Assembly (NCBI GenBank): GCA_964523895.1
Contig: CAZGBJ010000007.1
Span: forward strand, 23,000-86,999
Direction of reading: 5' to 3'
DNA: 64,000 nucleotides
Source of the DNA: an uncultured Enterobacteriaceae bacterium
Lineage (GTDB): Bacteria; Pseudomonadota; Gammaproteobacteria; Eutrophobiales; Eutrophobiaceae
Below are positions 1 to 26,467 of the stretch, one piece after another. Every line of letters begins with the position of its first letter. Within the stretch, counting starts at the first letter, position 1. Both the position numbers and the translations under genes were made by a program. The notes under the pieces are model-generated. The model had not been told where the DNA came from and searched no databases. It saw only the letters and a list, made by a program, of their open reading frames with translations.

Positions 1-948
1 GGCCCGGTTGAAACAGTAATATTAGGTGAGTCGGAAGATATCCTTAAGAAGATACCATTAAATAACTACTCTGTTTCATCAGCAGAAAACACTGGTTTAT
101 CTCTGGCGTTTGAACGTGACCTTTCAGTTAGCTCTCATGCTTTTCTAAAATCACATGTGATGAATGGTCAAGCCGTATTACCTGTTGCGGTTATTATCGA
201 ATGGTTTGCTCACGGTGCATTACATTTGAATCCGGGTATGCAATTTAACGGATTCGATGATTTTCGTGTTTTAAAAGGCGTTACGTTAAAAGCCGACGAA
301 AATATTCGTTTACAAATTCTTGCGGGAAACATTATTCATAAAGGCGATGTCTCTTTAGTTCCTGTTGAGCTACGTTCGAATGAATTATTACATGCCAGCG
401 CGACAATGATTCTGGCTGATAGTTATGAAACTAATGTTTTGCCACAATTAGAGGGTGTAAACGAAAAATATAATAGAAAACAAGGCGAGTATTATCAAAA
501 TGGACAGTTATTTCATGGACATGATTTACAAGGTATTTCAGAAGTAACACATTGCAGTGACAAAGGTATTGTCGCCAATATAAATGCAGCACCACAACCA
601 TCAACATGGATGAATCAACCGATACGTTCGAGCTGGTTAACCGATCCTTTAATTATTGATTCAGCATTCCAGATGATGATCCTTTGGAGCTTTGAAGAAA
701 GCGGAATCGCTTCTTTACCAACAACAATTGCATCGTATCGTCAATATCAACGGAGCTACCCAAAAGATAGTGCAAAAATTATTGCTGAAGTTAATGAACA
801 AACTGATCATAGAGCTAATGCAGCAATAGAGTTTCTTGATAGTAAAGGACAGTTGGTCGCCTTGATGGATGGATATGAATGTGTACGTGACAGCTCATTG
901 CAAATAGCATTCAAGAAAAATAAACTGGATAAAAAAGAAAACGTATAA
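1..948 (+). CDS. pfaA: 3-prime part of a PfaA-like multidomain PKS, C-terminal polyketide-type dehydratase domain. Gene starts upstream of the window.
   Basis: Frame 1 is open from nt 1 into ORF 157..948. HxxxGxxxxP motif (HVMNGQAVLP) and downstream DSAFQ (DxxxQ) motif are typical of PKS DH domains. The position upstream of a PfaC-like gene fits a PfaA C-terminus (KS-AT-ACPn-KR-DH). Confidence 0.6.
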   Translation, partial: GPVETVILGESEDILKKIPLNNYSVSSAENTGLSLAFERDLSVSSHAFLKSHVMNGQAVLPVAVIIEWFAHGALHLNPGMQFNGFDDFRVLKGVTLKADENIRLQILAGNIIHKGDVSLVPVELRSNELLHASATMILADSYETNVLPQLEGVNEKYNRKQGEYYQNGQLFHGHDLQGISEVTHCSDKGIVANINAAPQPSTWMNQPIRSSWLTDPLIIDSAFQMMILWSFEESGIASLPTTIASYRQYQRSYPKDSAKIIAEVNEQTDHRANAAIEFLDSKGQLVALMDGYECVRDSSLQIAFKKNKLDKKENV

Positions 949-978
949 AATAGATTGGGTATTTAGAAGATAGATAAT

Positions 979-2040
979 ATGAAAAAAACAGCATTAATAA
1001 CAGGTATAACGGGACAGGATGGGGCTTATCTTGCCGAATTTTTATTGAACAAGGGATATATTGTTCATGGTATTAAACGAAGAAGTTCGCTGATTAATAC
1101 CGATAGAATAGATCACTTATATCAAGATCCGCATATGTCTGGTCGTAATTTAATTTTACATTATGGTGATATGACTGACTCTACTAGTCTAACGCGCGTT
1201 ATTCAGGAATCCCAACCGGACGAAATTTATAATCTTGCCGCACAAAGTCATGTTGCTGTCTCATTTGAAGAACCGGAATACACGGCTGACTCAGATGCGT
1301 TAGGTCCATTAAGATTACTTGAAGCAATCCGGATTCTTAAGCTTGAAAAGAAGACACGTTTTTATCAAGCTTCAACATCTGAACTTTATGGTTTGGTTCA
1401 GGAAGTGCCACAAAAAGAAACCACCCCATTTTATCCACGTTCACCCTATGGTGTTGCAAAGTTGTATGCTTATTGGATAACGATTAACTATCGTGAAGCT
1501 TATGGTATTTATGCGTGTAACGGTATTTTATTTAATCATGAGTCGCCAGTACGCGGAGAAACCTTTGTTACCAGAAAGATTACTATGGCCTTGAGTCGGA
1601 TAAAGCATGGTTTACAGGACAAGTTATATATTGGCAACCTCAATGCAAAACGTGATTGGGGACATGCACGAGATTACGTCGAGATGCAATGGCTTATGTT
1701 GCAACAAAAAGAGCCGGAAGACTATGTTATCGCTACTGGCGTACAAAATAGTGTTAGGGAATTTATTGAATTCGCTGCCAAAGCGATTGATATAAACATA
1801 ACATGGAAAGGTCAGGATAAAGATGAAAAAGGTTATGATGATGAAGGAAATTGCATTGTCGAAGTTGATCCACGCTACTATCGTCCTGCTGAAGTTGAAA
1901 GTTTGTTAGGTGATCCGACTAAAGCAAGAGAAAATTTAGGTTGGACTCCGGCAACGAGCTTGCAGGGCTTAATTGATGAAATGATGCAGAAAGATATGCA
2001 GCTCGTTGAAAATGAAGTATTAATAAATAACCAAAAGTAA
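979..2040 (+). CDS. gmd: GDP-mannose 4,6-dehydratase
   Basis: Near full-length colinearity with E. coli Gmd from memory (ALITGxTGQDGxYLAEFLL, [20 protein letters not shown], DPRYxRPAEV, LGDPTKA). Confidence 0.9.
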
Positions 2041-2045
2041 ATTTC

Positions 2046-3005
2046 ATGCAAAAGGATTCCCGTATATACGTTGCCGGTCATAACGGTTTGGTAGGAAGTG
2101 CCATTTGCCGAAAGCTAAAAGCCGATCATCATAATAATCTCATTGCACGGTCACACAAAGAACTTGATCTCTGCAATCAATTAGCAGTAGATGCGTTCTT
2201 TAAAGAAGAACAACCCGAATACGTGTTTCTTGCAGCAGCGGTTGTTGGTGGTATACATGCGAATGAAACACAGGCGGTAAGTTTTCTAAGAGATAATCTC
2301 CTGATACAAACACATGTAATTGAAGCGGCTTATAAACATGGTGTAAAAAAAATGGCTTTTTTAGGGTCTACCTGTATCTATCCACGAGATTGTCCGCAGC
2401 CAATTAAGGAAGAATACTTACTAACTGGACCGTTAGAAGAAACTAACCAATGGTATGCGATAGCCAAAATTTCCGGCATTAAACTATGCCAGGCTTACCG
2501 CAAAGAATATGGTTTTAATGCAATCTCATTAATGCCAACCAATCTTTATGGACCAAATGATAATTTTGATTTAATGGACTCGCATGTTTTACCTGCTTTA
2601 ATACGAAAGTTTCATGAAGGTAAAGTCAGCAATAAAGAAGCGGTAGAGATTTGGGGCACTGGTAATCCTTATCGAGAGTTTCTCTATATTGATGATCTGG
2701 CAGATGCTAGTTGCTTTCTTATGCAAAATTATGATGATGACTCAATTATTAATGTTGGAACAGGCCAGGATATTAGTATTAGAGAATTGGCTGAATTAAT
2801 TAAAAAAATAGTTGGTTATAAAGGAAAAATTATTTTTGATTCCTCCAGGCCAGATGGCACTCAAAAAAAATGTTGTGATGTTACAAAATTAAATAATTTA
2901 GGTTGGAAAAGTAAAACGACTTTGCAAGATGGGTTAAAAATAACTTACGATTGGTATATTAACAATTTACCCTCTGAAACTGTTGATATTAAAGCAATAT
3001 TATAA
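2046..3005 (+). CDS. fcl: GDP-L-fucose synthase (GDP-4-keto-6-deoxymannose 3,5-epimerase/4-reductase)
   Basis: Matches E. coli Fcl/WcaG: VAGHxGxVGSAI, YAIAKIAGIKLCxxY, MPTNLYGPxDNF, NVGTGxDxxIRELA. The start lies 6 nt after the gmd stop. Confidence 0.85.
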   Translation: MQKDSRIYVAGHNGLVGSAICRKLKADHHNNLIARSHKELDLCNQLAVDAFFKEEQPEYVFLAAAVVGGIHANETQAVSFLRDNLLIQTHVIEAAYKHGVKKMAFLGSTCIYPRDCPQPIKEEYLLTGPLEETNQWYAIAKISGIKLCQAYRKEYGFNAISLMPTNLYGPNDNFDLMDSHVLPALIRKFHEGKVSNKEAVEIWGTGNPYREFLYIDDLADASCFLMQNYDDDSIINVGTGQDISIRELAELIKKIVGYKGKIIFDSSRPDGTQKKCCDVTKLNNLGWKSKTTLQDGLKITYDWYINNLPSETVDIKAIL

Positions 3006-3010
3006 GTATC

Positions 3011-4006
3011 ATGAAAAATATTCTGGTAACGGGTGGTGCTGGCTATATCGGGTCCCATGCTTGTAAAGCGTTGGCAAAAGCAGGATATAAGCCAATCACG
3101 TTTGATAATCTGTCAACAGGCCATGAGCATGCTGTAAAATGGGGGCCGCTTGAAATTGGTGATATCCGAGATACTGGGAAGCTATCATTAGTATTCGAAC
3201 AGTATAAACCTGAAGCGGTTATTCATTTTGCCTCAAAGATTGTGGTGTCAGAGTCGGTCAAGGCTCCTGATGAATACTATGATAATAATGTTAACGGCAC
3301 CTTAAGTTTGCTTAATGTGATGAAAACGCATTCAGTTAACGCAATTGTATTTTCAAGTACCGCATCGGTATACGGTTATCCTGAATCAAATCCTATCAAC
3401 GAATCTCATCCGTTGAAGCCGATAAATCCTTATGGAAAAACGAAACTGGCGTGTGAATGGCTATTACAGGATTACCAGAGTGCTTATGAAATAAACTATG
3501 TTGCATTAAGGTATTTCAATGCCGCAGGTGCCGATGCAGAAGATGAGTTAGGTGAAGAGCATGAGCCTGAAACACATTTAATACCATTAATTTTAAAAGC
3601 GACAAAAGACAAAACGAGCGTTTCAATTTTTGGCGATGATTATAATACGCTCGATGGGACTTGTATCCGTGATTATATCCATGTTTCAGACTTAGCAGAT
3701 GCCCATATTAAAGCATTGGAATATTTATTTAAACATAACAAATCAGAAACATTTAATCTTGGAACAGGAAAAGGATATTCAGTCAGGCAAGTATTAAATA
3801 CGGTTAAAAAAATCACTTCGGAAGATATTAGTGAAATAAAATCCGATAGAAGGTCAGGTGACCCAGATAGTCTGGTTGCAAAATCAGATTTGGCACAAAA
3901 GACATTAGCGTGGCAACCAAAGTTAAGTGACATAGATAATATAATTAAAACAGCCTGGAAATGGCATATACAAAAGCCTGTTCTTGGCTTGGATGACAAG
4001 TCATGA
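3011..4006 (+). CDS. galE: UDP-glucose (or UDP-GlcNAc) 4-epimerase
   Basis: SDR fold with VTGGAGYIGSH, YxxxK (PYGKTK), RYFNAAGA and DGTCIRDYIHVxDLA, as in GalE. The stop overlaps the start of the next gene (ATGA at 4003-4006). Confidence 0.8.
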   Translation: MKNILVTGGAGYIGSHACKALAKAGYKPITFDNLSTGHEHAVKWGPLEIGDIRDTGKLSLVFEQYKPEAVIHFASKIVVSESVKAPDEYYDNNVNGTLSLLNVMKTHSVNAIVFSSTASVYGYPESNPINESHPLKPINPYGKTKLACEWLLQDYQSAYEINYVALRYFNAAGADAEDELGEEHEPETHLIPLILKATKDKTSVSIFGDDYNTLDGTCIRDYIHVSDLADAHIKALEYLFKHNKSETFNLGTGKGYSVRQVLNTVKKITSEDISEIKSDRRSGDPDSLVAKSDLAQKTLAWQPKLSDIDNIIKTAWKWHIQKPVLGLDDKS

Positions 4007-7000
4007 AAAGTAAACAAGTTGCCGCAATAGTTGGTATTGGCGGCATCTTTCCTGGTGCACGTGATCTGGATGAATTCTGGCAGAATATTTTGAATGGGAA
4101 AGAGTCTGCTATTGATGTAGGTGCTGATCGTTGGCGTTTAGAGCCTGATGAACTGTACTCTCCTGATGTGTCTCCCGATAAAATTAATTCCCGTCGTGCC
4201 TGTTTGATTCAAAATTTTGAATTTAATCCAGAAGGGTTGAATGTTGATGCTGAGTTATTGCAACGTCTTGACCCGATGTATCAAATTTTATTGCATGCAG
4301 GTCGAGATGCCTGGGCTGATGCAAAAACGGATGCTATTAATAAACAACGTGTTGGTATTGTCATCGGTAATATCGCACTTCCTACTGAATCATCCTCACA
4401 ACTTAGTGATGAAATATTTAAACAACTCTTTGAATCACAGTTAGGTATTAATTCAGACCAACAAAAAGAAAAAATAGAGCCTTTAAATAGATATGTTGCC
4501 GGGTTGCCGGGTGGCTTATTGGCAAAAGCTTTAGGTTTTGGTGCAGGTGCTTATACATTAGATGCGGCATGTTCTTCCTCACTTTATTCTCTTAAGTATG
4601 CCATTGATGAATTAGTTGCTGGTCGCACTGATGTTATGTTAGCTGGTGGTTTATCTCGGCCGGATTGTTTGTATACACAAATGGGTTTTTCTCAACTCAA
4701 TGCCATTTCAAAGTCAGGTCGTTGTTCACCGTTTGATAGCAAAGCTGATGGTCTTGTAGTAGGTGAGGGAGCAGGTATTTTTGTACTTAAGCGATTAAGC
4801 GATGCCATCGAACAAGATGATCATATCTATGCCACGATAGAAGGTATTGGCCTTTCAAATGATATCGAAGGCAATATCATGTCGCCAGATTCGGAAGGTC
4901 AAGGCCGTGCAATGCAATCGGCTTATGAAATGGCCGGGTGGAAACCAAATCAAGTACAACATATTGAATGTCATGGCACAGGAACACCTGTTGGTGATGG
5001 CGTTGAATTCACCTCATTAAAAAATCTATGGCAAAGTCATAAGGTAGAGGGTGAATGTGTTATTGGATCAGTAAAAAGTAATGTCGGTCACTTATTAACA
5101 GCTGCTGGTGCTGCGGCATTAATGAAAACATTGTTAGCAATGAAACACGGTGTGTTACCGCCAACAGCAAATTATGAAAACCCTTCCAGTAAAATAGATT
5201 TAACAAATAGTCCATTCAAAGTTCTGGATAAAGCTGAGACGTGGAGTGTAAAAAACAATAGTCCAAGACGTGCTGCGATTAGTGGTTTTGGATTTGGTGG
5301 TATCAATGCGCATGTTCTTTTACAAGAGTATTTGCCAGAAACAATTAAAACGTTACCTTTAACGAGTATCGAAACTACGCATTCTGATAAATGTGATATT
5401 GCTATTGTAGGAATGGAATCACGACTAGGACCATGGAATGAACAGAATGATTTCGATAACGCATTATTATTTGGTTCAAATAAAGATGTTACTCATCCAA
5501 ACAATTGGTGGGGAGCAGATGGCAAAGCGTATCAGGGATATCTAATTGATGAAGTTAAAGTGCCTTTAGGTCGCTATAGAATACCTCCGGCTGAATTAAA
5601 AGAGATGTTGCCGCAGCAATTGTTAATGCTTGAAGTTGCAGCTAATGCATTGGATGACGCGAAACTTTCCGAGCTATCAAAAGAACAACAATGTCGTACA
5701 GGTGTTTTTATCGGTATTGCACTTGATTTGAATACAACTAATTTCCATTTTCGCTGGATGCAAAAGAAATATGCAAGAGAATGGCTGGAGAGATTAGGCA
5801 TTGAATTAAATAATATTGAATTAGATGAATGGGTAGAAAACCTTAAACAGTCATTTGGTCCATCATTATCTGCAAATCGAACTATGGGTGCGTTAGGCGG
5901 TATTGTTGCCAGTCGAATTGCCCGTGCTTTCCGAGTTGGTGGTCCCGCTTTTACTATTTCTTCTGAAGAAACATCGGGGTTACGAGCACTGGAATCCGGT
6001 GTGCGTGCCTTGCAACAGCAAGAACTGGATCAGGTAATTATAGGTGCTGTTGATCTGGCTAGTGATATTAGAGCTGTTAAAGCTAATGCAGATCAGATTG
6101 ATACTATTGCTGATGGAGCTACTGCCTTTGTCTTGAAACGTCACGAAGATGCCGTGCGTGATGGCGATAATGTTTATGCATTAATAAAAGGTATTGGTGT
6201 TGCGTCGGCAGGAGGCTGTGATGCAAAGGTTGAAGAATCTGGAATGGTTGCTGCTATTCAAAATGCTTGTTCAGATGCACAATGTCATTTAGATGCTATT
6301 GATTTAGTAAGTCAATCTTCTGTGAATGATGAAGTTGATATTCCTGCATTAGAAAATGCAACTATTAATACTTTCTCGCTTGGTCATTCGGGTGCAGCAA
6401 ATGGCTTAATGAATGTAGCGAATACAGTGACGCTATTAAATCAGTGTCTTCTGCCAAATGAGAATAATTCAAATGCGCGTTACTGGTTAAAAGATCGAAT
6501 AAAAGGCCCGAGACAGAGTTTAGTAAACAGTACAAGTATTGACGGTGTGTGTGTCAGTGTTGTTTTACAACAAGCCCAGAATAAAACACAGGCTAATATT
6601 GGTCTTAAAAATGTTAACTCTAAATTATTTTCGTTGTCAGCCAAGAATAAAGAATTATTAATAAATAAAATTAAAGCGTTATCTTTTGTTGATGTTGTTG
6701 AAGATACTAAAGAAAAATTTCGGGCTGTTATTCTTGTTAATAACGAAAATGAATTAAATTTAGCTCGCGAAGAACTCATTGCTAGCATACAAAAAAATAA
6801 CTCAATTGATAATGGACGCTGTTTTTATTCAGCGTCTCCTTTAGCGAAAGAAGGGAAAGTTGCCTTTGTCTATCCCGGCTCAGGCAATCATTTCTTCGGT
6901 ATGGGACAAGAGTTAGGTGTTAGTTTTCCTGAAGTATTGGAAAATTTAGATCAAGAAAATGAAATGCTATCTTCACAATTTGCAAAAGGTCGCTTTTGGC

Positions 7001-10000
7001 AAAATCACCATCATGAGGATAATCCTGGTAAAGAATTAAGCCATGAAGAAGTTATTTTCGGACAAGTGTGGTTGGGTACTTTTGTTAGTGATGTTGTAAC
7101 CAGCTTTGACGTTAAACCTGATGCCGTTATTGGTTATAGTCTGGGTGAGACTGCCGGTTTTTTCTCAACACGGACATGGACGGCTCGTGATGAGATGTTA
7201 AAACGAATTCAACAAAGTACTTTGTTTACAGAAGAATTGGCCGGCCCTTGTAAATCTGTACAAAAAGCATGGGGTACGGATAAACCTGTTAATTGGGCAC
7301 TGGGTGTAATTAATACCAGTGCCGAAAAAGTTAAAACGGTATTAAAAAAGTATGAACATGTTTATTTATTAATTATTAATACACCAAATGAATGTGTTAT
7401 TGGTGGAGACAAAACCAAATTAAACAAGGCTGTTAAAGAACTTGCTGTACAATATCATCCCTTGTCAGGTGTAACGACGGTGCATTGTGAAGTCGCTAAG
7501 CCTGTTGAAAAAGCGTATCGGGATTTACATATTTTTGAAACGACGCCGGCAAAAGGCGTTACTTTTTATAGTGGAATACGTGGTGGTGCATACGAGGTAA
7601 CACAGAATTCAGCCGCTGACTCTATTCTGGACCAAGCATTGGCTCCTTTCGATTATACCAAGGTGATTAATAGTGCCTATGAAGATGGTGTACGTCTGTT
7701 TATTGAAATGGGGCCAGGTGGTTCTTGTGCAAGAATGATCGATCAGATCCTTGAAGAGAAATCGCATTATGCGAAAGCAGTTTGTGTTAAAGGACAAAAC
7801 AGCGTTGATAATGTATTGCAAACACTAGCTAGATTATATGTTGAAGGCGTGGATGTGGATTTTTCAAAATTACAAACTAATAATGTTAAACAAGGAAAGA
7901 AATATAATAGCTATATTAGTGTTAAAACAGGTGGCGATCCGTTTAAAGTTCCACAACTTCCTATGTCTAAATCCGATGTTGTTGAAGAGATACATATTGA
8001 AAAAAATAACGTCGCAACAGATGTAATGTCATTACCAATGACTGCAAATGGTGACTATCAACCAACAATCGAGCCAATAATTCAACAAATGCAGCTCGCT
8101 GAACGAGCTCGTTCTGAAGCACAAGAAGCATTTCTGAGAGTTAGTCAGGGTATGACCGAGACTTTGACTCAAGCTATTAATATGCAAATGCAACTTTTGG
8201 ATAATGGCAACATTGATTTATCGCAAGTAATAATTAATCAAGAACAGTCTGATAGAGAAGAAACTCAAAGTAAGGATTGTCTGTTTGATCGTGAACAATG
8301 TATGGAAATAGCAATCGGATCTATTAGAAAAGTACTAGGTTCAGCATTTGCGGATATTGATACTTATCCCACAAGAGTACGTTTGCCTGATGAACCTTTA
8401 ATGTTAGCTGATCGTATTATAAGTATCGAAGGTGAAGCTGATTCTTTAAAAAACAACCCCAATACAAATGGGCGCGTTATCACTGAACATGATGTCTTGC
8501 CGGGAGCCTGGTATCTGGATCAGGGACGTATACCAACCTGTATCGCTGTTGAAGCAGGACAAGCCGATTTATTTTTATCCGGCTATTTAGGTATTGATCA
8601 TATATCCAAAGGACTGGCGGTTTATCGTTTATTAGATGCAAAAATTACCTTTCATGGATCCTTACCGGAAGCAGGACAAACTATTCATTATGATATTCGT
8701 ATCGATGAGTTCTTCCGACAAGATGACACTTATCTATTTCGTTTTAATTTTGAAGGTAGCGTCGCCTGCACGGATGCAGGCGGTAGAGTCGAGTCTGGAA
8801 CAGAGACCGGGATTGGTAGACCATTACTAACCATGACAGAAGGTTGTGCCGGTTTCTTTACTCAACAAGAATTAGATGCAGGAAAAGGCATCGTCTTAAC
8901 TAATATTGAAAAACAAAAAGCTCAGGGAATATTTACAAGTGACTGGAATGAATTAGTTGCTATGCAGAATGAAAGTTATAACGATGAACAGTTAAATGCG
9001 TTACGGCAAGGTGATTTAGCAACTTGTTTTGGTGGGGCATTTAATAATATTGAATTGAATAATCCAGTGGGTTTACCCAGTGGTCGCATGACATTAGTTC
9101 ATCGTATTTTAAATCTTGATCCTAAAGGTGGTCGTTTTGGAATAGGTCAAATTACTGGTGAAGCAGACATTCATCCTGATGACTGGTTCTTAACTTGTCA
9201 CTTTGTTGATGATCGCGTGATGCCTGGAACATTAATGTATGAATGTTGTTTGCATACCCTGCGTGTTTATTTATTAGGCATGGGTTGGATAGGTGAAACA
9301 GATGAGTTTGTTTATGAACCGATTATTGGCGAAGTGAGTCAGTTGAAATGTCGAGGACAAGTCACGGAAGAAACTAAAGCCGTTCAATATGAAATTACAT
9401 TAAAAGAAATTGGCTATCGTAATGATGGAACACCTTATGTATTAGCGGATGCATTAATGTACGGCGATCACCGTGCCATAGTGCAAATGAAAAATATGTC
9501 TGTTCAATTAAGCGGCTTAAAACGCGATAAATTGGAAGCGCTTTGGGAAAAGCAAATTAATAATATGAGTGGTTCTGAAATGGAGATTTTCAGAGGTGCT
9601 CATACAAAACAAGTTTTATTCGATAACGATTCGATTTTAGCTTTTGCTATTGGTAAGCCTTCCGAAGCCTTTGGTGATAAATACAAAATATTTGATTCCG
9701 AACGCAAGATTGCACGTCTACCAGGGCCGCCATACAAATTTCTTGATCGAATCGTTTCTATTAAAGATTGTGAACAATGGGTATTGAAAGCCGGTGGCGT
9801 TATCGAAGCTGAATATGATGTCCCCGTAGATGAATGGTACTTTACTGAAGATAATCAACCTTATATGCCGTTTGCCGTATTGCTTGAAGTGGCTTTGCAA
9901 CCTTGTGGCTGGTTAGCGGCATATTTAGGTTCAGCATTAAGCAGTGATATTGATATTTCATTTAGAAATTTAGGTGGCAAGGCAACACAATACATAAAAG

Positions 10001-10704
10001 TAACTCCAGAGATTGGGACGCTCACTACAAAAGTAAAGATGACCAGTGTCTCGCAGTCTGGCGGTATGATTATTCAGACGTATGATTACGAAATGACGTC
10101 AGATCAAGGGTTGGTATATAAAGGCGATACTAATTTTGGTTTCTTTTCAAAACAGGCATTGGCTGATCAAATTGGTATTCGCGATGCCAAACCTTATAGT
10201 CCAACAGAATTAGAACAGTCTCGAAGCAAATCCTTTGTTTATTCAGTTGATGCACCGATGCCTGCGGATATGATGCGTATGGTCGATGAGATTAGTCACT
10301 ATGATCCTGAAGGTGGGCCAAATAACCTGGGTTTTATAGAAGGAAAAGCAAGTGTAAAACAAGATGCCTGGTTTTTTAAAGCCCATTTTTATGAAGATCC
10401 GGTTTGGCCAGGTTCGTTAGGATTAGAATCTTTCATGCAGTTATTAAAAGCTTTTGCATGGGAGCGATGGCAGGGTGAACTACGGATCGGCGATTTTTCT
10501 TTTGATAGTATGGCTTTGCAGCAGGTTCACCAATGGGTATACCGAGGTCAAATCCTGCCGATTGATGAAAAAGTGACGGTTCAGGCGGTCATTACCGAGA
10601 TTGATGATGAGTCCAAAACCATTAAAGCGGATGGTTTTTTGACTGTTGATGGACGAATTATCTATCAGATGAAGAACTTTGCGCTTAGAATAACCTCCCT
10701 ATGA
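4003..10704 (+). CDS. pfaC: PfaC-like PUFA/secondary-lipid synthase subunit. KS (Cys190, nt 4570), KS-beta/CLF-like domain without active Cys, acyltransferase (GYSLGE, nt 7132-7149), then two FabA-type dehydratase domains (CHFVDDRVMPG at nt 9196; AHFYEDPVWPG at nt 10381).
   Basis: DAACSSS, HGTGT and GHLLTAAG motifs of the KS. A second KS-like fold has ISSEETSG in place of the Cys motif. An AT GxSxG motif is present. Two HxxxD/MPG FabA-like cores are present. The size (2233 aa) and domain order fit PfaC with an inserted PfaB-like AT. Confidence 0.8.
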   Translation: MKSKQVAAIVGIGGIFPGARDLDEFWQNILNGKESAIDVGADRWRLEPDELYSPDVSPDKINSRRACLIQNFEFNPEGLNVDAELLQRLDPMYQILLHAGRDAWADAKTDAINKQRVGIVIGNIALPTESSSQLSDEIFKQLFESQLGINSDQQKEKIEPLNRYVAGLPGGLLAKALGFGAGAYTLDAACSSSLYSLKYAIDELVAGRTDVMLAGGLSRPDCLYTQMGFSQLNAISKSGRCSPFDSKADGLVVGEGAGIFVLKRLSDAIEQDDHIYATIEGIGLSNDIEGNIMSPDSEGQGRAMQSAYEMAGWKPNQVQHIECHGTGTPVGDGVEFTSLKNLWQSHKVEGECVIGSVKSNVGHLLTAAGAAALMKTLLAMKHGVLPPTANYENPSSKIDLTNSPFKVLDKAETWSVKNNSPRRAAISGFGFGGINAHVLLQEYLPETIKTLPLTSIETTHSDKCDIAIVGMESRLGPWNEQNDFDNALLFGSNKDVTHPNNWWGADGKAYQGYLIDEVKVPLGRYRIPPAELKEMLPQQLLMLEVAANALDDAKLSELSKEQQCRTGVFIGIALDLNTTNFHFRWMQKKYAREWLERLGIELNNIELDEWVENLKQSFGPSLSANRTMGALGGIVASRIARAFRVGGPAFTISSEETSGLRALESGVRALQQQELDQVIIGAVDLASDIRAVKANADQIDTIADGATAFVLKRHEDAVRDGDNVYALIKGIGVASAGGCDAKVEESGMVAAIQNACSDAQCHLDAIDLVSQSSVNDEVDIPALENATINTFSLGHSGAANGLMNVANTVTLLNQCLLPNENNSNARYWLKDRIKGPRQSLVNSTSIDGVCVSVVLQQAQNKTQANIGLKNVNSKLFSLSAKNKELLINKIKALSFVDVVEDTKEKFRAVILVNNENELNLAREELIASIQKNNSIDNGRCFYSASPLAKEGKVAFVYPGSGNHFFGMGQELGVSFPEVLENLDQENEMLSSQFAKGRFWQNHHHEDNPGKELSHEEVIFGQVWLGTFVSDVVTSFDVKPDAVIGYSLGETAGFFSTRTWTARDEMLKRIQQSTLFTEELAGPCKSVQKAWGTDKPVNWALGVINTSAEKVKTVLKKYEHVYLLIINTPNECVIGGDKTKLNKAVKELAVQYHPLSGVTTVHCEVAKPVEKAYRDLHIFETTPAKGVTFYSGIRGGAYEVTQNSAADSILDQALAPFDYTKVINSAYEDGVRLFIEMGPGGSCARMIDQILEEKSHYAKAVCVKGQNSVDNVLQTLARLYVEGVDVDFSKLQTNNVKQGKKYNSYISVKTGGDPFKVPQLPMSKSDVVEEIHIEKNNVATDVMSLPMTANGDYQPTIEPIIQQMQLAERARSEAQEAFLRVSQGMTETLTQAINMQMQLLDNGNIDLSQVIINQEQSDREETQSKDCLFDREQCMEIAIGSIRKVLGSAFADIDTYPTRVRLPDEPLMLADRIISIEGEADSLKNNPNTNGRVITEHDVLPGAWYLDQGRIPTCIAVEAGQADLFLSGYLGIDHISKGLAVYRLLDAKITFHGSLPEAGQTIHYDIRIDEFFRQDDTYLFRFNFEGSVACTDAGGRVESGTETGIGRPLLTMTEGCAGFFTQQELDAGKGIVLTNIEKQKAQGIFTSDWNELVAMQNESYNDEQLNALRQGDLATCFGGAFNNIELNNPVGLPSGRMTLVHRILNLDPKGGRFGIGQITGEADIHPDDWFLTCHFVDDRVMPGTLMYECCLHTLRVYLLGMGWIGETDEFVYEPIIGEVSQLKCRGQVTEETKAVQYEITLKEIGYRNDGTPYVLADALMYGDHRAIVQMKNMSVQLSGLKRDKLEALWEKQINNMSGSEMEIFRGAHTKQVLFDNDSILAFAIGKPSEAFGDKYKIFDSERKIARLPGPPYKFLDRIVSIKDCEQWVLKAGGVIEAEYDVPVDEWYFTEDNQPYMPFAVLLEVALQPCGWLAAYLGSALSSDIDISFRNLGGKATQYIKVTPEIGTLTTKVKMTSVSQSGGMIIQTYDYEMTSDQGLVYKGDTNFGFFSKQALADQIGIRDAKPYSPTELEQSRSKSFVYSVDAPMPADMMRMVDEISHYDPEGGPNNLGFIEGKASVKQDAWFFKAHFYEDPVWPGSLGLESFMQLLKAFAWERWQGELRIGDFSFDSMALQQVHQWVYRGQILPIDEKVTVQAVITEIDDESKTIKADGFLTVDGRIIYQMKNFALRITSL

Positions 10705-11900
10705 ATTACTCCCGCGTACAAATGGAATCTATCGGTTATGAATTGCCACCGGTAGTGATTACTTCAGAAGATCTCGAGCATCGCCTAATGCCGATGTACG
10801 ACGCATTGCATATTGCTCCCGGTCAATTACAAGCCTTAACAGGTATTAGTGAACGTCGTTGGTGGGAAGAAGGACATGTACTATCCGATGGTGCAGCGGC
10901 AGCGGCTCGCAAAGCTCTGGAACAATCAAATGTTGAGGCAAAAGATATCGAAGCACTTGTTTATACGGGTGTTTGTCGGGAAAATTTTGAACCAGCTACA
11001 GCCTGTTCTGTTGCCGCCCAATTAGGCATTGGTGACGAAACTAATATTTATGACATATCCAACGCTTGTCTGGGCGTAATGAATGGTATTATTGATATTG
11101 CTAATCGTATCGAATTAAAACAAATCCGTGCCGGCATGGTGGTTTCCTGTGAAAGCTCTCGTGAAATCGTTGAGATTATGATTGAGCGTATGTTGCAGGA
11201 TAAAAGTATGGGTATGTTCACTAATTCATTGGCGACATTAACCGGTGGTTCAGGTGCTGCAGCAGTATTACTGACGGATGGTTCTTTCGATAATAAGGAG
11301 ACGCATCGCTTGGTTGGTGGCGCTAATCAATCTGCACCTGAATTTCATAAATTATGCCGTTGGGGTGTTACATTAACACCGCAGGCGATTGGTGATTTAA
11401 TGTTTTCACCGGATAAATTACTGGCTGCAATTGATCAGGTGATGGAGCCAGAAGTATTACCTAGCGCGATCAAGGAAGTGATGACCAGTGATAAATTGCC
11501 ACCGGCATTAACGAGTATAATGCCTTCAGAAAAGTTGCCGGCGGCATTATCTGAATTTATGTCTACCGATTCTGTATCAGTACTAAAGCACGGTGCAATA
11601 CTGGGTGTTAAAACCTGGGGTAATTTTCTGGGTAAAATGGGTTGGGCCAGAGACCAGGTTGATAAAGTCATTTGTCATCAGGTCGGTGAAGGTCATCGTG
11701 ATACCATATTAAAAGAACTGGGTATCGCACCCGAAAAAGATTTCAGTACTTATAAATATCTCGGCAATATCGGTACTGTTTCTGTTCCTTTAACAGCAGC
11801 CATTGCTGAACAAAGGCAGTTTCTTAAGAAAGGTGATCGCGTTAGTTTTCTTGGCATTGGTAGTGGTTTGAATTGCATGATGCTTGGTTGGGAATGGTAA
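10701..11900 (+). CDS. oleA: OleA, FabH-like thiolase for head-to-head Claisen condensation of acyl-CoAs
   Basis: KAS III/thiolase fold with ISNACLG (Cys123, nt 11067). The C-terminus LGIGSGLNCMMLGWEW and KLCRWG closely resemble Xanthomonas/Stenotrophomonas OleA (GIGSGLNC). It is followed by oleB-C-D homologs in canonical order. It carries a roughly 40-aa triple-repeat insertion not present in canonical OleA. Confidence 0.8.
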   Translation: MNYSRVQMESIGYELPPVVITSEDLEHRLMPMYDALHIAPGQLQALTGISERRWWEEGHVLSDGAAAAARKALEQSNVEAKDIEALVYTGVCRENFEPATACSVAAQLGIGDETNIYDISNACLGVMNGIIDIANRIELKQIRAGMVVSCESSREIVEIMIERMLQDKSMGMFTNSLATLTGGSGAAAVLLTDGSFDNKETHRLVGGANQSAPEFHKLCRWGVTLTPQAIGDLMFSPDKLLAAIDQVMEPEVLPSAIKEVMTSDKLPPALTSIMPSEKLPAALSEFMSTDSVSVLKHGAILGVKTWGNFLGKMGWARDQVDKVICHQVGEGHRDTILKELGIAPEKDFSTYKYLGNIGTVSVPLTAAIAEQRQFLKKGDRVSFLGIGSGLNCMMLGWEW

Positions 11901-11924
11901 TATTCTCCTGATCTAAATTTTATT

Positions 11925-12815
11925 ATGTCTTTTCCGGATTATCCTGATAACAATTCTTGTTATATGTCTGTTAATAACAGGCGACTACATTATCTCGAAG
12001 GAGGCAATGAACATCCTGAAACCGTTGTGATGTTACACGGGAATCCAAGTTGGTCATTTTATTATCGTCATCTGTTTACTGCATTAATCGATAAATATCA
12101 TTGTATTGTTCCTGACCATATTGGTATGGGTTTATCGGATAAGCCTGCTAGTAGTGAATATGACTTTACGCTAAAGCAACGCGTTGATGATCTTGATACG
12201 CTACTGTCCAGTTTGAATGTAGATAATAATTTAACGCTAATTGTCCATGATTGGGGCGGCATGATTGGTATGGCATACGCTACACGATATCCCGACAAGA
12301 TAAGACGATTAGTCATTTCCAATACAGCAGGTTTTCATATCCCGCAGGGAAAACAAATTCCCTGGCAATTAAAACTAAGTCGCACGCCATTAATTGGTTC
12401 TTTGTTGATTCAAGGACTCAATGCTTTTTGTCGAGGTGGTGTGATTCAATGTGTTACGCGAAAACCAATGAACAAAGATGTCAAAGATGCTTATTTAGCG
12501 CCTTATGATAGTTGGTCGAATAGATTATCTGTTTTACGATTTGTTGAAGATATTCCGTTAGATGAAGAGCATGTTACTTATGATGTGGTTGATAATGTTG
12601 ACAATAATTTACAACAGTTTTCAAGTTTACCAATGCTCATTTGCTGGGGATTAAATGACTTTGTCTTCGATCAACATTATCTAGCTGAATGGAAAAAACG
12701 TATGCCTATTGCGGAATACCATGAGTTTGATGCCGGACATTATTTGCTAGAAGATGCGAGTGATGAGGTTATTCCGATTATTAAACAATTTTTAGAAAAA
12801 CATATAATTAAATAA
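11925..12815 (+). CDS. oleB: OleB, alpha/beta-hydrolase (haloalkane dehalogenase-like) beta-lactone decarboxylase
   Basis: HGNPSWSFYYR and VHDWGG nucleophile-elbow region of the haloalkane-dehalogenase-like alpha/beta hydrolase family. Position between oleA and oleC. Confidence 0.75.
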   Translation: MSFPDYPDNNSCYMSVNNRRLHYLEGGNEHPETVVMLHGNPSWSFYYRHLFTALIDKYHCIVPDHIGMGLSDKPASSEYDFTLKQRVDDLDTLLSSLNVDNNLTLIVHDWGGMIGMAYATRYPDKIRRLVISNTAGFHIPQGKQIPWQLKLSRTPLIGSLLIQGLNAFCRGGVIQCVTRKPMNKDVKDAYLAPYDSWSNRLSVLRFVEDIPLDEEHVTYDVVDNVDNNLQQFSSLPMLICWGLNDFVFDQHYLAEWKKRMPIAEYHEFDAGHYLLEDASDEVIPIIKQFLEKHIIK

Positions 12816-12926
12816 TTATTTTTATTGCCACGGAGCACACAGAGGCCACGGAGAAAAGAAAAATGAAACTATTTAGTAAAAAAAATATGTATATCTCTGT
12901 GTTCTCTGTGGCTAATATTTAAAATT

Positions 12927-14582
12927 ATGATTACGGCAAATATTGCATCCCATTTGCCAGTAATGGCTGAGAAACAGCCCGAAACGTATGCGGTTGTTAA
13001 ACAGAGCAAGAACAAATCAAAAAAACCTTCATATGAAATTGCTTATACCTATAAGCAACTGGATGACGTTAGCAATCTTATTGCTAATGGTTTAGAAGCA
13101 TACGGAGTAAAAAAAGGAACGAGAACAGTACTTATGGTTAAACCGGGGCTTGATTTTTTTGCGTTGGTTTTTGCTTTGTTTAAACTTGAAGCGGTTCTGG
13201 TTGCTGTTGATCCGGGTATGGGAATTAAAAATCTGGGTAAATGTCTTAAAGAAGCTGAGCCTGAAGCCTTTATAGGCAACAGCACAGCGCATCTAGCTAG
13301 AATTACATTATCGTGGTCAAAGAATACAATAGATAAAACAGTTTTAACCGGGAGTAATATTTTATTAAATCAATTTTTAACAGACCTTAACAAGATAAAA
13401 TTGTTTGGAAAGCAGTCTGAAAGAAATAAAATAGAAACAAAGGCTGAAGATGTCGCTGCGATTCTTTTTACCAGCGGTAGTACCGGTGTTCCTAAAGGCG
13501 TTGTTTATACACATGCTAATTTTACGGCGCAAGTTGAAGCGTTAAAAAAACTTTATAATATTCAGCCAGGTGAAGTTGATCTTGCAACATTTCCATTGTT
13601 TGCCTTATTTGCTCCAGCGATGGGAATGACATCAATTATTCCACAGATGGATTTTACTAAACCCGGTACAGTTGATCCAACAAGAATTATCGATGCCGTG
13701 ACACAATATAAATGCACCAATATGTTTGGTTCGCCTGCCTTGCTTAATCGAGTGGGAAAATGGAGTGAGCATAAGGAAATTAAACTATCATCATTGAAAC
13801 GCGTATTGTCAGCCGGTGCACCTGTGTCTTCAACTGTGTTGCAACGCTTTAAAAAAATATTGAATGAAGATGTACAGATTTTTACACCCTACGGTGCAAC
13901 GGAATCATTACCAGTCAGTTCTATAGGCAGTGATGTGATTATTAATGAAACATCTAAGCTGACGGCTAAAGGAAAAGGCGTATGCGTTGGCAAAGCTGTT
14001 ACAGGCCTGGATGTGAAAATTATAAAGATTAATGACAATGTTATTCCAGAATGGAAAGATGAACTTGAATCACCAGTTAATGAAATAGGTGAAATTTGTG
14101 TTAAAGGTCCACAGGTGACACGAAATTATTTTAATCGTAATGATGCAACCGGGCTAGCTAAGATAAGAACAGATAATGGTTTTTACCACCGTATGGGTGA
14201 TGTAGGTTATCTTGATTGGCAAGATAGACTTTGGTTTTGTGGCCGTAAGAGTCAACGTGTCATTATTGAAACAGAAACAATGTTTACAATATGCTGTGAA
14301 GCAATATTTAATTCGCATCCTTTTGTTTTTCGATCAGCTTTAGTTGGAGCGCAAGCGAATAAAAAAACAATCCCTGTGATTTGTATTGAACTTGAGCCTG
14401 AACATAAATGGTTTAATAAAGAAGAATTTAAAAAAGAGTTGTTGTCTTTAGCTTCTAACTCTGAACTTACAAAGAATATCAAACATATTCTTTTTCATTC
14501 TGGGTTCCCGGTAGATATTAGACATAATGCCAAAATTGGTCGGGAAAAACTGACGATATGGGCTAGTAAAGAAGTCACATGA
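12927..14582 (+). CDS. oleC: OleC, AMP-dependent synthetase/ligase family (beta-lactone synthetase)
   Basis: Adenylate-forming enzyme motifs TSGSTGxPKG (FTSGSTGVPKGV) and YGATE. Position in the oleABCD order. Confidence 0.75.
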   Translation: MITANIASHLPVMAEKQPETYAVVKQSKNKSKKPSYEIAYTYKQLDDVSNLIANGLEAYGVKKGTRTVLMVKPGLDFFALVFALFKLEAVLVAVDPGMGIKNLGKCLKEAEPEAFIGNSTAHLARITLSWSKNTIDKTVLTGSNILLNQFLTDLNKIKLFGKQSERNKIETKAEDVAAILFTSGSTGVPKGVVYTHANFTAQVEALKKLYNIQPGEVDLATFPLFALFAPAMGMTSIIPQMDFTKPGTVDPTRIIDAVTQYKCTNMFGSPALLNRVGKWSEHKEIKLSSLKRVLSAGAPVSSTVLQRFKKILNEDVQIFTPYGATESLPVSSIGSDVIINETSKLTAKGKGVCVGKAVTGLDVKIIKINDNVIPEWKDELESPVNEIGEICVKGPQVTRNYFNRNDATGLAKIRTDNGFYHRMGDVGYLDWQDRLWFCGRKSQRVIIETETMFTICCEAIFNSHPFVFRSALVGAQANKKTIPVICIELEPEHKWFNKEEFKKELLSLASNSELTKNIKHILFHSGFPVDIRHNAKIGREKLTIWASKEVT

Positions 14583-15577
14583 AAGCCCTGGTGACTGGAG
14601 GTGGCGGTTTTCTTGGCAGTGCTATTGTAAAAGCATTACTGGATAAAGGTAACTCTGTCAGGGCTATACAAAGGGGAGACTATCCCTTTTTAAAAGAGCT
14701 GGGTGCTGAAGCTATTCAGGGTGATTTGACCAGACCTGACGATATTAATGCGGCTGCCAGCGGATGTGATGTTATCTTTCATGTGGCAGCAAAAGCTGGT
14801 GTATGGGGTGATTATAACGATTATTATCAAGCTAATGTGGTCGCTACTAAAAACGTATTACAGGCTTGTCGGGTCAATAATGTTAATAATCTGATATATA
14901 CCAGTACACCCAGCGTTGTCTTCAATGGTGAAAATGAAGAAGGCATTAACGAGTCAGCGCCTTATGTAAAAAACTGTTTTAATGCCTATCAAAAAACCAA
15001 AGCAGAAGCAGAGCAGCTTGTTATCAATGCAAATAATACTGATTTAAAAACAGTGTCATTAAGACCGCATTTAATCTGGGGTCCGGGTGATCCTCATCTT
15101 GCGCCAAGAATTATTAGCCGGGCGAAAACAGGTCGTTTAAGACTAGTAGGCAATAAAAATAATAAAGTTGATTCCTGTTATATAGATAATGCAGTTCAGG
15201 CTCATTTGTTAGCGGCTGATTGTTTGCAGTCAAATAAAGTTTGCGCGGGGAAAATATATTTTATTAGCAATGATGAACCGATTAGCATGGCTGATTTAAT
15301 TAATAAAATTTTAACTGCCGCTGATTTGCCGTCAGTCAATAAAAATTTACCTGAAAGAGCAGCCTATATCATTGGCTATGTGCTGGAAAAAAGTTATACA
15401 TTATTAAATATAAATAACGAACCTGTAATGACACGATTTGTTGCCCGGCAACTTTCGACGTCACATTGGTTTGACCTGTCAGCTGCAAAACAGGATCTAG
15501 GTTATCAAGCGCAGGTCAGTATTGATGAAGGAATGAAATGCCTTAAAGAATCACTTGCTTCTGATGTTTCTAAATGA
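14579..15577 (+). CDS. oleD: OleD, NAD(P)H-dependent reductase of the 3-beta-hydroxysteroid dehydrogenase/epimerase-dehydratase family
   Basis: VTGGGGFLGSAIV Rossmann motif with YxxxK (YQKTK), 3beta-HSD/NAD-epimerase family. ATGA overlap with oleC and with the downstream PPTase. Confidence 0.75.
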   Translation: MKALVTGGGGFLGSAIVKALLDKGNSVRAIQRGDYPFLKELGAEAIQGDLTRPDDINAAASGCDVIFHVAAKAGVWGDYNDYYQANVVATKNVLQACRVNNVNNLIYTSTPSVVFNGENEEGINESAPYVKNCFNAYQKTKAEAEQLVINANNTDLKTVSLRPHLIWGPGDPHLAPRIISRAKTGRLRLVGNKNNKVDSCYIDNAVQAHLLAADCLQSNKVCAGKIYFISNDEPISMADLINKILTAADLPSVNKNLPERAAYIIGYVLEKSYTLLNINNEPVMTRFVARQLSTSHWFDLSAAKQDLGYQAQVSIDEGMKCLKESLASDVSK

Positions 15578-16296
15578 ATAACGTTAATAAATTACTGGAA
15601 ACCAAGATTGAATTGTCAGATAAGAAAATACACGTTTTTTTATTGGAACTTGATTTGTTTAATGGTGATGATTTATATGTTTATTTGCCAGAAGATGAAG
15701 CTAAAAGGGCTGCTAGATTAAAGATAGAGGAAAAAAAGAATCAATTTGTAATCAGTAGGGGGATACTCAGATTATTGTTGTCAAATTGTTTGCAGAAAAA
15801 ACCAGAGAAAATAAATTTCTTATATGGGCAGCATTGCAAACCCGCTATCGAAGATAAGTATAATAATAAATCAGTTGAATTCAATGTGTCCCATTCTGGG
15901 GGTTATGCATTAATAGCAATAACGTTAGATAATAAAGTGGGCGTTGATATTGAAAAAATAAATCATGAAATAGATTATCAATCGTTATCTGATCGATTTT
16001 TCAGTGGCAAAGAAAATGATGAATTAAGAAGTTTGGATGAAAATGAGAAATTAGATGCTTTTTATCGGGCATGGGTAAGAAAGGAATCTTTCATAAAAGC
16101 AACAGGGAAAGGTATTACTTTTGGTCTTGATAGTTTTTCTGTTTCGTTGGCTGAAAGTAGAAAATCCAGTATTGAAGTTATTTCTGAAAATTTAATAAAT
16201 GAACAATGGTATTGCTACGATTTAAATAATCTGGATGACTATAAACTGGCGTTAACAAGTTGTAGCAAGGAACAGGAACTTATTATTTTCCGGTAA
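15574..16296 (+). CDS. pfaE: Sfp-type 4-prime-phosphopantetheinyl transferase (PfaE-like)
   Basis: PPTase motifs FNVSHSG, GVDIE and WxRKESFIKATGKG. Terminal gene of the pfa/ole operon. Confidence 0.75.
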   Translation: MNNVNKLLETKIELSDKKIHVFLLELDLFNGDDLYVYLPEDEAKRAARLKIEEKKNQFVISRGILRLLLSNCLQKKPEKINFLYGQHCKPAIEDKYNNKSVEFNVSHSGGYALIAITLDNKVGVDIEKINHEIDYQSLSDRFFSGKENDELRSLDENEKLDAFYRAWVRKESFIKATGKGITFGLDSFSVSLAESRKSSIEVISENLINEQWYCYDLNNLDDYKLALTSCSKEQELIIFR

Positions 16297-26346: not shown

Positions 26347-26422
26347 GGGGCTATAGCTCAGCTGGGAGAGCGCTTGCGTGGCACGCAAGAGGTCGGCGGT
26401 TCGATCCCGCCTAGCTCCACCA
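26347..26422 (+). tRNA. tRNA-Ala (anticodon GGC)
   Basis: 76-nt sequence GGGGCTATAGCTCAGCTGGGAGAGCGC...GGC...TCGATCCCGCCTAGCTCCACCA is near-identical to E. coli tRNA-Ala(GGC). Ends in encoded CCA. Confidence 0.9.
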
Positions 26423-26467
26423 ATATATATTTTAAGTAGGCTGTTTTTCAGGACATATACAAATATT

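Follow-up and report, generated by a model that had tools for sequence, protein, structure and literature searches.

The closest described counterpart of the locus analyzed here is found in Geobacter bemidjiensis Bem, where pfaD, A, B, C, oleA, B, C, D and pfaE form a tandem array and which makes C31:9 (PMC4882568). More generally, the ole genes have been described as "often linked" to pfa-like clusters, and the Type I clusters have been proposed to feed olefin synthesis (PMC3098273). In P. profundum SS9, the pfa and ole operons are adjacent. In vivo, OleA is known to draw on acyl chains supplied by the Pfa synthase, and in Shewanella and Photobacterium EPA and the precursor of the hydrocarbon are products of one and the same Pfa synthase.

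The block considered here comprises positions 1-16296 of the window, i.e. the entire 64-kb stretch of DNA that was analyzed, and it comes from an uncultured marine gammaproteobacterium of low GC content. Judging from gene content and order, the block most probably corresponds to the downstream two-thirds of a secondary-lipid operon of Type I (Shulse & Allen) with the layout pfaD-pfaA-[gmd-fcl-galE]-pfaBC-oleA-oleB-oleC-oleD-pfaE, which would produce a very-long polyunsaturated hydrocarbon, the sugar genes being passengers. The features are the following:

1-948, plus strand: 3' end of a pfaA-like gene (C-terminal PS-DH, or DH', domain; the ORF exits the 5' edge of the window; Pfam PS-DH, TIGR02813 PfaA)
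979-2040, plus strand: gmd, GDP-mannose 4,6-dehydratase, apparent inserted passenger (TIGR01472, 580 bits, cutoff 415; Pfam GDP_Man_Dehyd, 509 bits)
2046-3005, plus strand: fcl, GDP-L-fucose synthase-like, apparent inserted passenger (NF047922, 474 bits, just under the cutoff of 500)
3011-4006, plus strand: galE, UDP-glucose 4-epimerase, apparent inserted passenger (TIGR01179, 439 bits, cutoff 262); its stop overlaps the pfaBC start
4003-10704, plus strand: pfaBC fusion, 2233 aa, with KS, CLF, AT and FabA-like DH domains (Pfam, TIGR02816, motifs)
10701-11900, plus strand: oleA, 399 aa, predicted head-to-head Claisen-condensing thiolase (NF006720, 478 bits, cutoff 285)
11367-11561, plus strand: insertion in OleA, aa 223-287, five degenerate 13-residue repeats with the consensus xPxKLPxALxxxM (alignment with Xanthomonas OleA)
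11925-12815, plus strand: oleB, alpha/beta hydrolase of the haloalkane dehalogenase type, putative beta-lactone decarboxylase (Abhydrolase_1)
12927-14582, plus strand: oleC, olefin beta-lactone synthetase of the AMP-dependent ligase family (NF045785, NF045786, PRK09274)
14579-15577, plus strand: oleD, 2-alkyl-3-oxoalkanoate reductase, SDR (NF042423, NF042422), with an ATGA overlap at each end
15574-16296, plus strand: pfaE-type (Sfp/HetI) 4'-phosphopantetheinyl transferase (PPTase), the last gene of the block (Pfam ACPS, AASDHPPT_N)
16283-16780, minus strand: convergent gene for a cNMP-binding protein, which closes the block after the PPTase gene

All genes from the pfaA end through the PPTase gene lie head-to-tail on the plus strand in the ORF map of positions 1-16296, in agreement with an earlier, sequence-only reading of this DNA, and the four ATGA start/stop overlaps listed in that reading were all found upon inspection of the sequence, at 4003-4006, 10701-10704, 14579-14582 and 15574-15577. 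ATGA is the commonest type of overlap among bacteria, so the four cases indicate tight packing and nothing unusual. The first overlap had been taken to join PfaA to PfaC. A PfaA-like end does precede the PfaC-like gene, but it stops at position 948 rather than at about 4003, and the intervening positions 979-4006 hold three separate nucleotide-sugar genes (gmd, fcl and galE) that had been overlooked; hence the overlap at 4003 couples galE, the actual upstream partner, with pfaBC, and not PfaA with PfaC. A scan for intrinsic terminators and promoters inside the block detected none above chance (the counts did not exceed those expected from shuffles) and was uninformative.

The PfaA-like fragment aligns to positions 2316-2568 of the 2582 positions of TIGR02813, that is, to the last ~250 positions, so that the window holds the DH' end of PfaA alone; for the full PfaA with four ACP domains, and for PfaD, one has to turn to relatives such as L057 and L065. 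Searches with the C-terminal fragment as the query returned mostly truncated proteins and no architecture, and the architecture was taken instead from metagenome loci: a longer fragment (938 aa) from the same lineage, L050, shows ACP-KR-DH, and the full protein of a 78%-identical relative, L057, spans 2268 aa with the domain order KS-AT-ACPx4-KR-DH. From relatives with 78-81% identical PfaA, we infer that the operon also has pfaD and the N-terminal portion of pfaA, both outside the window. The KS-CLF-AT-DH-DH megasynthase of the sequence-only reading was recovered at the domain level as a PfaB/C fusion of 2233 aa: Pfam detects ketoacyl-synt in two stretches, Acyl_transf_1 at 955-1262 and FabA in three stretches, and residues 949-1283 match the PfaB family TIGR02816. 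The first KS domain carries DAACS187 and HGTGT324; in the second KS-like domain, which reads TISSEETSG, the Cys is missing. The AT domain has the motif GYSLG1044. This fusion with the KS-CLF-AT-DH2 arrangement is what defines Type I clusters (PMC3098273).

By both sequence and fold, the KAS III-like protein of the block groups with OleA and not with FabH. Among the PDB sequences, its best match is Xanthomonas OleA (E 1e-55, 193 bits), compared to 4e-17 for the best FabH. In a Foldseek search with the AF2 model (pLDDT 92.9, from a 93-sequence alignment), ranks 1-28 are all OleA (target-normalised TM 0.94-0.96, E down to 2e-42), with FabH appearing from 3.5e-29; a previous model, built on a shallow set of 32 sequences sharing at least 75% identity, had a pLDDT of 45 and was replaced. 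Cys123 (NACLG), Glu97 (FEPATA), His326 (CHQV) and Asn356 (GNIG) align with C143, E117, H285 and N315 of the Xanthomonas protein, and each is at least 90% conserved across the 93 homologues.

The remaining genes named in the sequence-only reading, oleB, oleC, oleD and the Sfp-type PPTase gene, are all present, with the OleBCD olefin genes located beside oleA in the order oleA-B-C-D at 10701-15577. For the ligase and the reductase, no other named family comes close to OleC and OleD: OleC scores 657 bits with NF045785 (cutoff 850) and 623 with NF045786 (cutoff 900), the next unrelated family being at 206, and passes PRK09274 (721 bits, cutoff 478), and OleD scores 476 bits with NF042423 and 422 with NF042422 (cutoff 580 for both), followed by a family at 153. 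The best NCBIfam match of the PPTase is NF042922 HetI (153 bits, under the cutoff). OleC, OleD and the PPTase thus fall below the NCBIfam equivalog cutoffs and appear to be divergent members of their families. The best families and PDB matches of OleB are haloalkane dehalogenases, and the HDWGG Asp-nucleophile motif is kept. Searches of PDB sequences with OleB, OleC and OleD retrieved generic dehalogenases, ligases and SDRs, and no Ole-named chain. In relatives, the position of oleB after oleA and that of the PPTase gene at the end of the operon are conserved.

Comparison of related loci shows that the pfa-ole junction is a stable feature. In all 82 evaluable loci, oleA starts within 2 kb downstream of pfaBC, and within 300 bp in 79 of these. 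The order pfaBC-oleA-B-C-D-PPTase is common to 46 species-representative genomes (according to the submitters' labels, 42 MAGs of proteobacteria, 3 of Planctomycetota and 1 of Gemmatimonadota), and distant loci from Planctomycetota (L046) and Desulfobacterales (L047) retain pfaBC-oleA-B-C-D. In metagenome contigs, pfaD-pfaA-pfaBC-oleA-oleB(-oleC) recurs down to 35-45% identity of PfaA. The sequence-only reading had suggested that the arrangement might be new and had named routine adjacency in well-described genomes as counter-evidence; the adjacency turned out to be routine, in these 82 loci as well as in G. bemidjiensis and P. profundum SS9. A literature search on the MAG names (UBA973 and others) and on pfa/ole in metagenomes found nothing relevant. 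In one locus (L035), minus-strand ORFs of 649 and 339 aa upstream of pfaBC were considered as squalene-hopene cyclase and squalene synthase and rejected, with no tblastn match and with Pfam assignments to AcrB and HlyD.

The grouping of OleA and the best families of OleC and OleD support the earlier proposal, in which the head-to-head condensation is supplied by a Pfa-type synthase of its own. By homology, the PPTase would activate the ACP domains of PfaA, and PfaD, PfaA and PfaBC would assemble malonyl units into a polyunsaturated acyl thioester of medium chain length. OleA would then condense two such chains head-to-head via Cys123, Glu97, His326 and Asn356, after which OleD would reduce the 2-alkyl-3-ketoacid, OleC would close the beta-lactone and OleB would decarboxylate it to a cis-olefin. 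The product is most likely a C31:9-type polyunsaturated hydrocarbon like that of G. bemidjiensis and Shewanella, with the chain length being a guess by analogy. It appears improbable that the Pfa-like synthase serves mainly to make membrane PUFA (EPA/DHA-like) or some other secondary lipid, with Ole as a minor branch or a pathway that stops at the ketone or the beta-lactone: although the synthase of Shewanella and Photobacterium does serve both ends, and OleB, OleC and OleD are divergent and below the equivalog cutoffs, all four ole genes are undamaged, stand in the canonical order and are kept together with pfaBC in 82 of 82 loci, OleB keeps its nucleophile motif, the sole cultured organism cited with the tandem layout (G. 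bemidjiensis) makes C31:9, and the domain scan of the block found no acyltransferase that would load PUFA into phospholipid.

The three sugar genes require separate consideration. The order PfaA-gmd-fcl-galE-PfaBC, with an identical Gmd protein, is repeated in independent metagenome assemblies and is therefore not an assembly artefact; each of four contigs (L050-L053, one from a Logan sample and three from JGI samples) contains the PfaA-to-PfaBC stretch in full, and two others (L054, L055) contain it in part. Furthermore, gmd-fcl is found at the pfaA/pfaBC junction in ~10 relatives (L006, L009, L024, L057, L058, L060, L063, L066, L068, L124). A functional tie to the operon is possible because of this recurrence and because galE is translationally coupled to pfaBC, and, much more speculatively, co-transcription of the sugar genes with pfaBC would tie envelope sugar supply to hydrocarbon production. 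Nevertheless, the idea that gmd, fcl and galE belong to the pathway and that the product is a sugar-decorated very-long-chain lipid (heterocyst-glycolipid-like or fucosylated) rather than a bare hydrocarbon seems decidedly improbable, even with gaps of 5-30 bp around the sugar genes, the ATGA overlap into pfaBC and the recurrence of the gene order. An Ole-type olefin has no hydroxyl for glycosylation, the Pfam domain scan found no glycosyltransferase or flippase genes in the block, pfaA directly abuts pfaBC in 63 related loci, and relatives carry APS kinase, HipA or TPR genes in place of galE. Across relatives, the pfa/ole junctions hold APS kinase, HipA, TelA, DinB, A2M/PBP1C, Wzc/CpsB, capsule genes, efflux genes or Cas12a, with DinB, TelA, Cas12a and the efflux genes being unrelated cargo. 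Thus, gmd, fcl and galE look like co-oriented passengers at a junction that is variable in the clade, and most likely would supply GDP-fucose and UDP-galactose to the large surface-polysaccharide/nonulosonic-acid locus at 27.6-64 kb of the window, 11 kb downstream of the block. That the pfaA/pfaBC and oleA/oleB junctions are landing sites for unrelated genes is a modest lead.

It is very improbable that the adjacency itself is meaningless, with pfaA, the sugar genes and pfaBC-ole being separate transcription units that are merely co-oriented in a compact genome, given that, against the nearly all-plus-strand orientation and positive GC skew of the 64-kb window and the presence of at least ~3 kb of unrelated genes, some on the opposite strand, directly upstream of pfaBC in 18 genome loci, stand the invariance of the pfaBC-oleA junction across phyla, the four overlaps combined with no terminator-like sites above chance, and the dependence of Ole on Pfa experimentally established in other bacteria.

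The unusual insertion in OleA, already remarked upon in the sequence-only reading, is evident in the alignment with Xanthomonas OleA, where it amounts to ~64-65 aa. Its 13-residue period scores 101, compared to -86 +/- 23 in shuffles, none of which (0 of 5000) reached 101; Tandem Repeats Finder detected no underlying repeat in the DNA, so that the repeat is visible at the protein level only. The insertion is modelled as short helices (pLDDT 60-85) between strands 219-225 and 283-289, at the site of a loop that varies in length among the pfa-linked OleAs (346 to 399 aa), and is missing from the Desulfobacterales and Planctomycetota loci that share the operon (OleA of 346-347 aa). The length and the prolines of the insertion are kept in 31 members of the clade, in which OleA is 75-96% identical and the neighboring proteins 35-88%. 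The insertion could alter substrate or partner specificity. This invariance in the face of divergent neighbors, together with the variable loop in pfa-linked OleAs, raises the speculative and rather unlikely possibility that the insertion is a functional module specific to pfa-coupled OleAs, maybe a helical arm that docks the tandem ACPs of PfaA or an anchor to the membrane or the Ole complex. If so, it would be this loop that directs Pfa intermediates towards the hydrocarbon.

The pfa-ole layout has a published precedent in Geobacter and occurs commonly in nature, and the block represents no new pathway or genetic arrangement. What the analysis adds is the presence of this known tandem pfa-ole hydrocarbon operon in a widespread clade of uncultured low-GC marine gammaproteobacteria (46 species-level genomes, chromosomes of ~2.5-2.9 Mb), which, by analogy, are candidate ocean sources of C31:9-type polyenes. 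The conserved OleA repeat insertion is, next to the junctions that act as landing sites, the second of two modest leads.

With regard to known systems, OleA of Xanthomonas campestris (PDB 3ROW, 4KTI and others) has the same thiolase fold and the same catalytic Cys, His, Asn and Glu base as the OleA of the block, but is only ~31% identical to it, lacks its residues 223-287 and uses FAS II-derived acyl-CoAs, whereas the protein of the block is proposed to use Pfa-derived chains. The pfaABCDE and oleABCD genes of Shewanella and Photobacterium, producers of EPA and C31:9, share the enzymology, with OleA condensing the Pfa chain and OleBCD finishing the olefin; however, pfaB and pfaC are separate genes rather than a pfaBC fusion, pfaD is at the 3' end, the PPTase gene is usually apart, and a pfaT thioesterase gene is linked, whereas the domain scan found no pfaT-like hot-dog gene in the block. 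In Shewanella, the pfa and ole loci are unlinked, in contrast to the block. The Type I cluster of G. bemidjiensis, which makes C31:9 hentriacontanonaene, differs in its host, an anaerobic deltaproteobacterium, and in having neither the three nucleotide-sugar genes between pfaA and pfaBC nor the 65-aa repeat insertion in OleA, but has the same one-strand gene order with the PPTase gene last, the same KS-CLF-AT-DH2 architecture of pfaBC with oleABCD immediately downstream, and pfaD before pfaA, as in the relatives of the window.

The block at positions 1-16296 of the window is a pfa-ole tandem operon of a known, widespread kind, found here in a new lineage; it includes sugar genes that are probably passengers, and a loop of its OleA is enlarged. 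It comprises ten co-oriented genes, identified by ORF listing, Pfam and NCBIfam, and is closed by a convergent cNMP-binding gene:

1-948, + strand: part of a pfaA-like gene that encodes the C-terminus (PS-DH domain; match to the final ~250 positions of TIGR02813, the PfaA model; frame open to the window edge)
979-2040, + strand: gmd (TIGR01472, 580 bits)
2046-3005, + strand: fcl-like GDP-fucose synthase (474 bits, slightly below the 500-bit cutoff)
3011-4006, + strand: galE (439 bits)
4003-10704, + strand: pfaBC fusion, 2233 aa
10701-11900, + strand: oleA-type thiolase, 399 aa
11925-12815, + strand: oleB, dehalogenase-like alpha/beta hydrolase
12927-14582, + strand: oleC, AMP-ligase type
14579-15577, + strand: oleD, SDR
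15574-16296, + strand: Sfp/HetI-type PPTase

All four ATGA overlaps reported in the sequence-only reading were found, and the PfaA 3' end that it described is present as a C-terminal fragment; this fragment stops at 948, and the three nucleotide-sugar genes that follow had been overlooked. Given that these genes separate PfaA from PfaBC, the first overlap joins galE to pfaBC. Independently assembled metagenomes show the same PfaA-to-PfaBC order around an identical Gmd protein, and four of these assemblies cover the stretch from end to end, so the gene order is not an assembly artefact. The gene spacing, together with the lack of terminator-like signals above chance in the block in a promoter/terminator scan, suggests co-transcription.

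Judging by its domains and motifs, the 2233-aa protein is a pfaBC fusion [KS-CLF-AT-DH2], in agreement with the initial description of a KS-CLF-AT-DH-DH megasynthase: it combines a single catalytic KS (motifs DAACS187 and HGTGT324), a second KS-like domain that lacks the Cys and represents the chain-length factor, a PfaB-type AT (GYSLG1044; TIGR02816) and FabA-type dehydratase domains. The KAS III-like thiolase is, by sequence and predicted fold, OleA and not FabH, as had been proposed: Xanthomonas OleA structures match it with an E-value of 1e-55 vs 4e-17 for the best FabH, and OleA structures occupy Foldseek ranks 1-28 (TM 0.94-0.96) for its AF2 model (pLDDT 92.9). Its Glu97, Cys123, His326 and Asn356 match the catalytic residues of the Xanthomonas enzyme, and each shows at least 90% conservation in a set of 93 homologues. 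The ligase and the reductase, likewise assigned correctly, match olefin beta-lactone synthetase (OleC) and 2-alkyl-3-oxoalkanoate reductase (OleD) far better than the next families; both score below the NCBIfam equivalog cutoffs and are thus divergent. OleB carries the Asp-nucleophile motif HDWGG. Across the gammaproteobacterial loci of the clade, identity to the window protein is 75-96% for OleA vs 46-81% for PfaBC, 53-88% for OleB, OleC and OleD and 35-66% for the PPTase, which implies unusually strong constraint on OleA.

The unusual OleA insertion noted previously is confirmed: Xanthomonas OleA has nothing that corresponds to residues 223-287, and these are also missing from almost all of the best 150 cluster representatives in a 1.84-billion-protein library, whose full-length members are 338-360 aa long and to which the window protein aligns in two stretches. 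The insertion consists of five 13-residue units with the consensus xPxKLPxALxxxM (period score 101 vs -86 +/- 23 for shuffles, none of 5000 reaching 101); no DNA-level repeat was found under it. Among 31 clade members neither its length nor its prolines vary, and in the AF2 model it is predicted, with moderate confidence, to form short helices flanked by two core strands. Given that this loop varies among pfa-linked OleAs (protein lengths of 346-347 aa in 23 loci, 350, 351, 359, 362, 366 and 383-385 aa, and 399 aa in 45 loci), the insertion is the extreme of an expandable loop and not a unique event. One might speculate that it docks the ACP domains of PfaA or aids membrane association.

The pfaA-pfaBC and oleA-oleB junctions are variable in the clade of the window: although the operon is conserved, these two sites act like hot spots for insertion. 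Their cargo includes gmd-fcl with APS kinase, HipA or TPR genes, Wzc/CpsB/TPR capsule genes (related locus L012, 2-3361), opposite-strand AcrB/HlyD efflux (L035, 2-2984, - strand) or TonB-receptor genes and, in one case, Cas12a (Cpf1; L043, 599-3517, - strand). In about ten related species, the oleA-oleB gap holds a same-strand gene for a 368-aa DinB/Pol IV protein (Pfam IMS, IMS_C; L008, 11269-12375; also L007, L009-L015, L042 and L065), which the window lacks, its gap being 24 bp; elsewhere this gap contains an alpha-2-macroglobulin/PBP1C pair (L017, 11352-19693), TelA (L020, 5862-8490) or a nucleotidyltransferase (L013, 12494-13549). There is a small probability that gmd-fcl-galE is functionally tied to the lipid, given that gmd-fcl also occupies the pfaA-pfaBC junction of about ten related loci and that galE is translationally coupled to pfaBC; against this, pfaA directly adjoins pfaBC in 63 loci. 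Because the block has no glycosyltransferase and a surface-polysaccharide locus lies 11 kb downstream in the same window, these genes are more readily regarded as passengers serving envelope glycan synthesis.

The polysaccharide locus (27664-63776, + strand) covers at least ~18 kb and probably about 36 kb; towards its distal end, at 48-64 kb, GC drops to 0.31-0.35. The ORFs sampled at 27.6-45.7 kb encode an epimerase, two UDP-Glc/GDP-Man dehydrogenases, an ABC exporter, a PseB-like dehydratase, a DegT aminotransferase, a cytidylyltransferase-aminotransferase fusion and NeuB; this gene content points to a glycan that contains nonulosonic acid. A second KAS III gene within this locus (42511-43428; FabH-like, 305 aa) is presumably involved in acyl modification of a sugar; it is unrelated to OleA. 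Between the two loci lie a pair of overlapping + strand ORFs, perhaps one gene that has been split or frameshifted (18411-18788, with weak N-terminal methyltransferase matches only, and 18686-19198, with no matches), a cytochrome P460 gene (19251-19760, - strand) and, following leuCD, a tRNA-Ala(GGC)/tRNA-Glu(TTC) pair (26347-26543).

For the block, the identity of the enzymes, the order of the genes and their conservation are direct observations; pfaD and the first part of pfaA are predicted from relatives with 78-81% identical PfaA, and the chemistry and a C31:9-type product are proposed by analogy with Shewanella and Geobacter. The PPTase would activate the PfaA ACPs, and PfaD, PfaA and PfaBC would iteratively assemble a polyunsaturated acyl chain; OleA would then join two such chains, OleD would reduce the condensation product, OleC would make the beta-lactone and OleB would decarboxylate it to the olefin. 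In several relatives, in a region whose equivalent here lies beyond the window, divergent squalene/phytoene synthase-like and squalene-hopene cyclase genes are located directly upstream of pfaD (L057, 1592-4737, - strand; also L058, L061, L062, L065, L066, L068 and L072), so that hopanoid genes adjoin the hydrocarbon operon in this clade.

An OleA protein search yielded 46 species-representative genomes, nearly all MAGs of uncultured marine Gammaproteobacteria (some under the label Thiotrichaceae bacterium UBA973, UBA7357 or UBA7359); several of them are closed chromosomes, 2.5-2.9 Mb in size. The order pfaBC-oleA-oleB-oleC-oleD-PPTase is kept in all whose contigs reach far enough. Two distant loci, in a Planctomycetota and a Desulfobacterales MAG, retain pfaBC-oleA-B-C-D. 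Six loci (L004, L005, L028, L032, L041 and L048) from MAGs deposited under the names 'Enterobacteriaceae', 'Gemmatimonadota' or 'Planctomycetota' encode OleAs 75-96% identical to that of the window, with the clade-specific insertion; these labels probably reflect mis-binning or mislabelling. Starting from the PfaA C-terminus, an independent search yielded 80 metagenome loci with the layout pfaD(ER)-pfaA(KS-AT-ACPx4-KR-DH')-pfaBC-oleA-oleB(-oleC), down to 35-45% PfaA identity. Of the 82 evaluable loci in the two sets together, 79 have the oleA start within 300 bp of the pfaBC end and the other three have it within 2 kb.

The sequence-only reading thus stands in part: the observation is partly confirmed and its functional interpretation is supported, and the suggestion that the pfa-ole arrangement might be undescribed is not, since adjacency of the two blocks is common in relatives and already published. 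The [KS-CLF-AT-DH2] pfaBC fusion is a defining trait of several cluster types of Shulse & Allen, Type I included (PMC3098273), and ole genes are described there as often linked to pfa-like clusters. Geobacter bemidjiensis Bem has pfaD, pfaA, pfaB, pfaC, oleABCD and pfaE in tandem and produces C31:9 (PMC4882568). In P. profundum SS9, the pfa and ole operons adjoin, and OleA takes its substrates from the Pfa synthase (Allemann & Allen 2019); the layout in the window is not unusual and has been described before.
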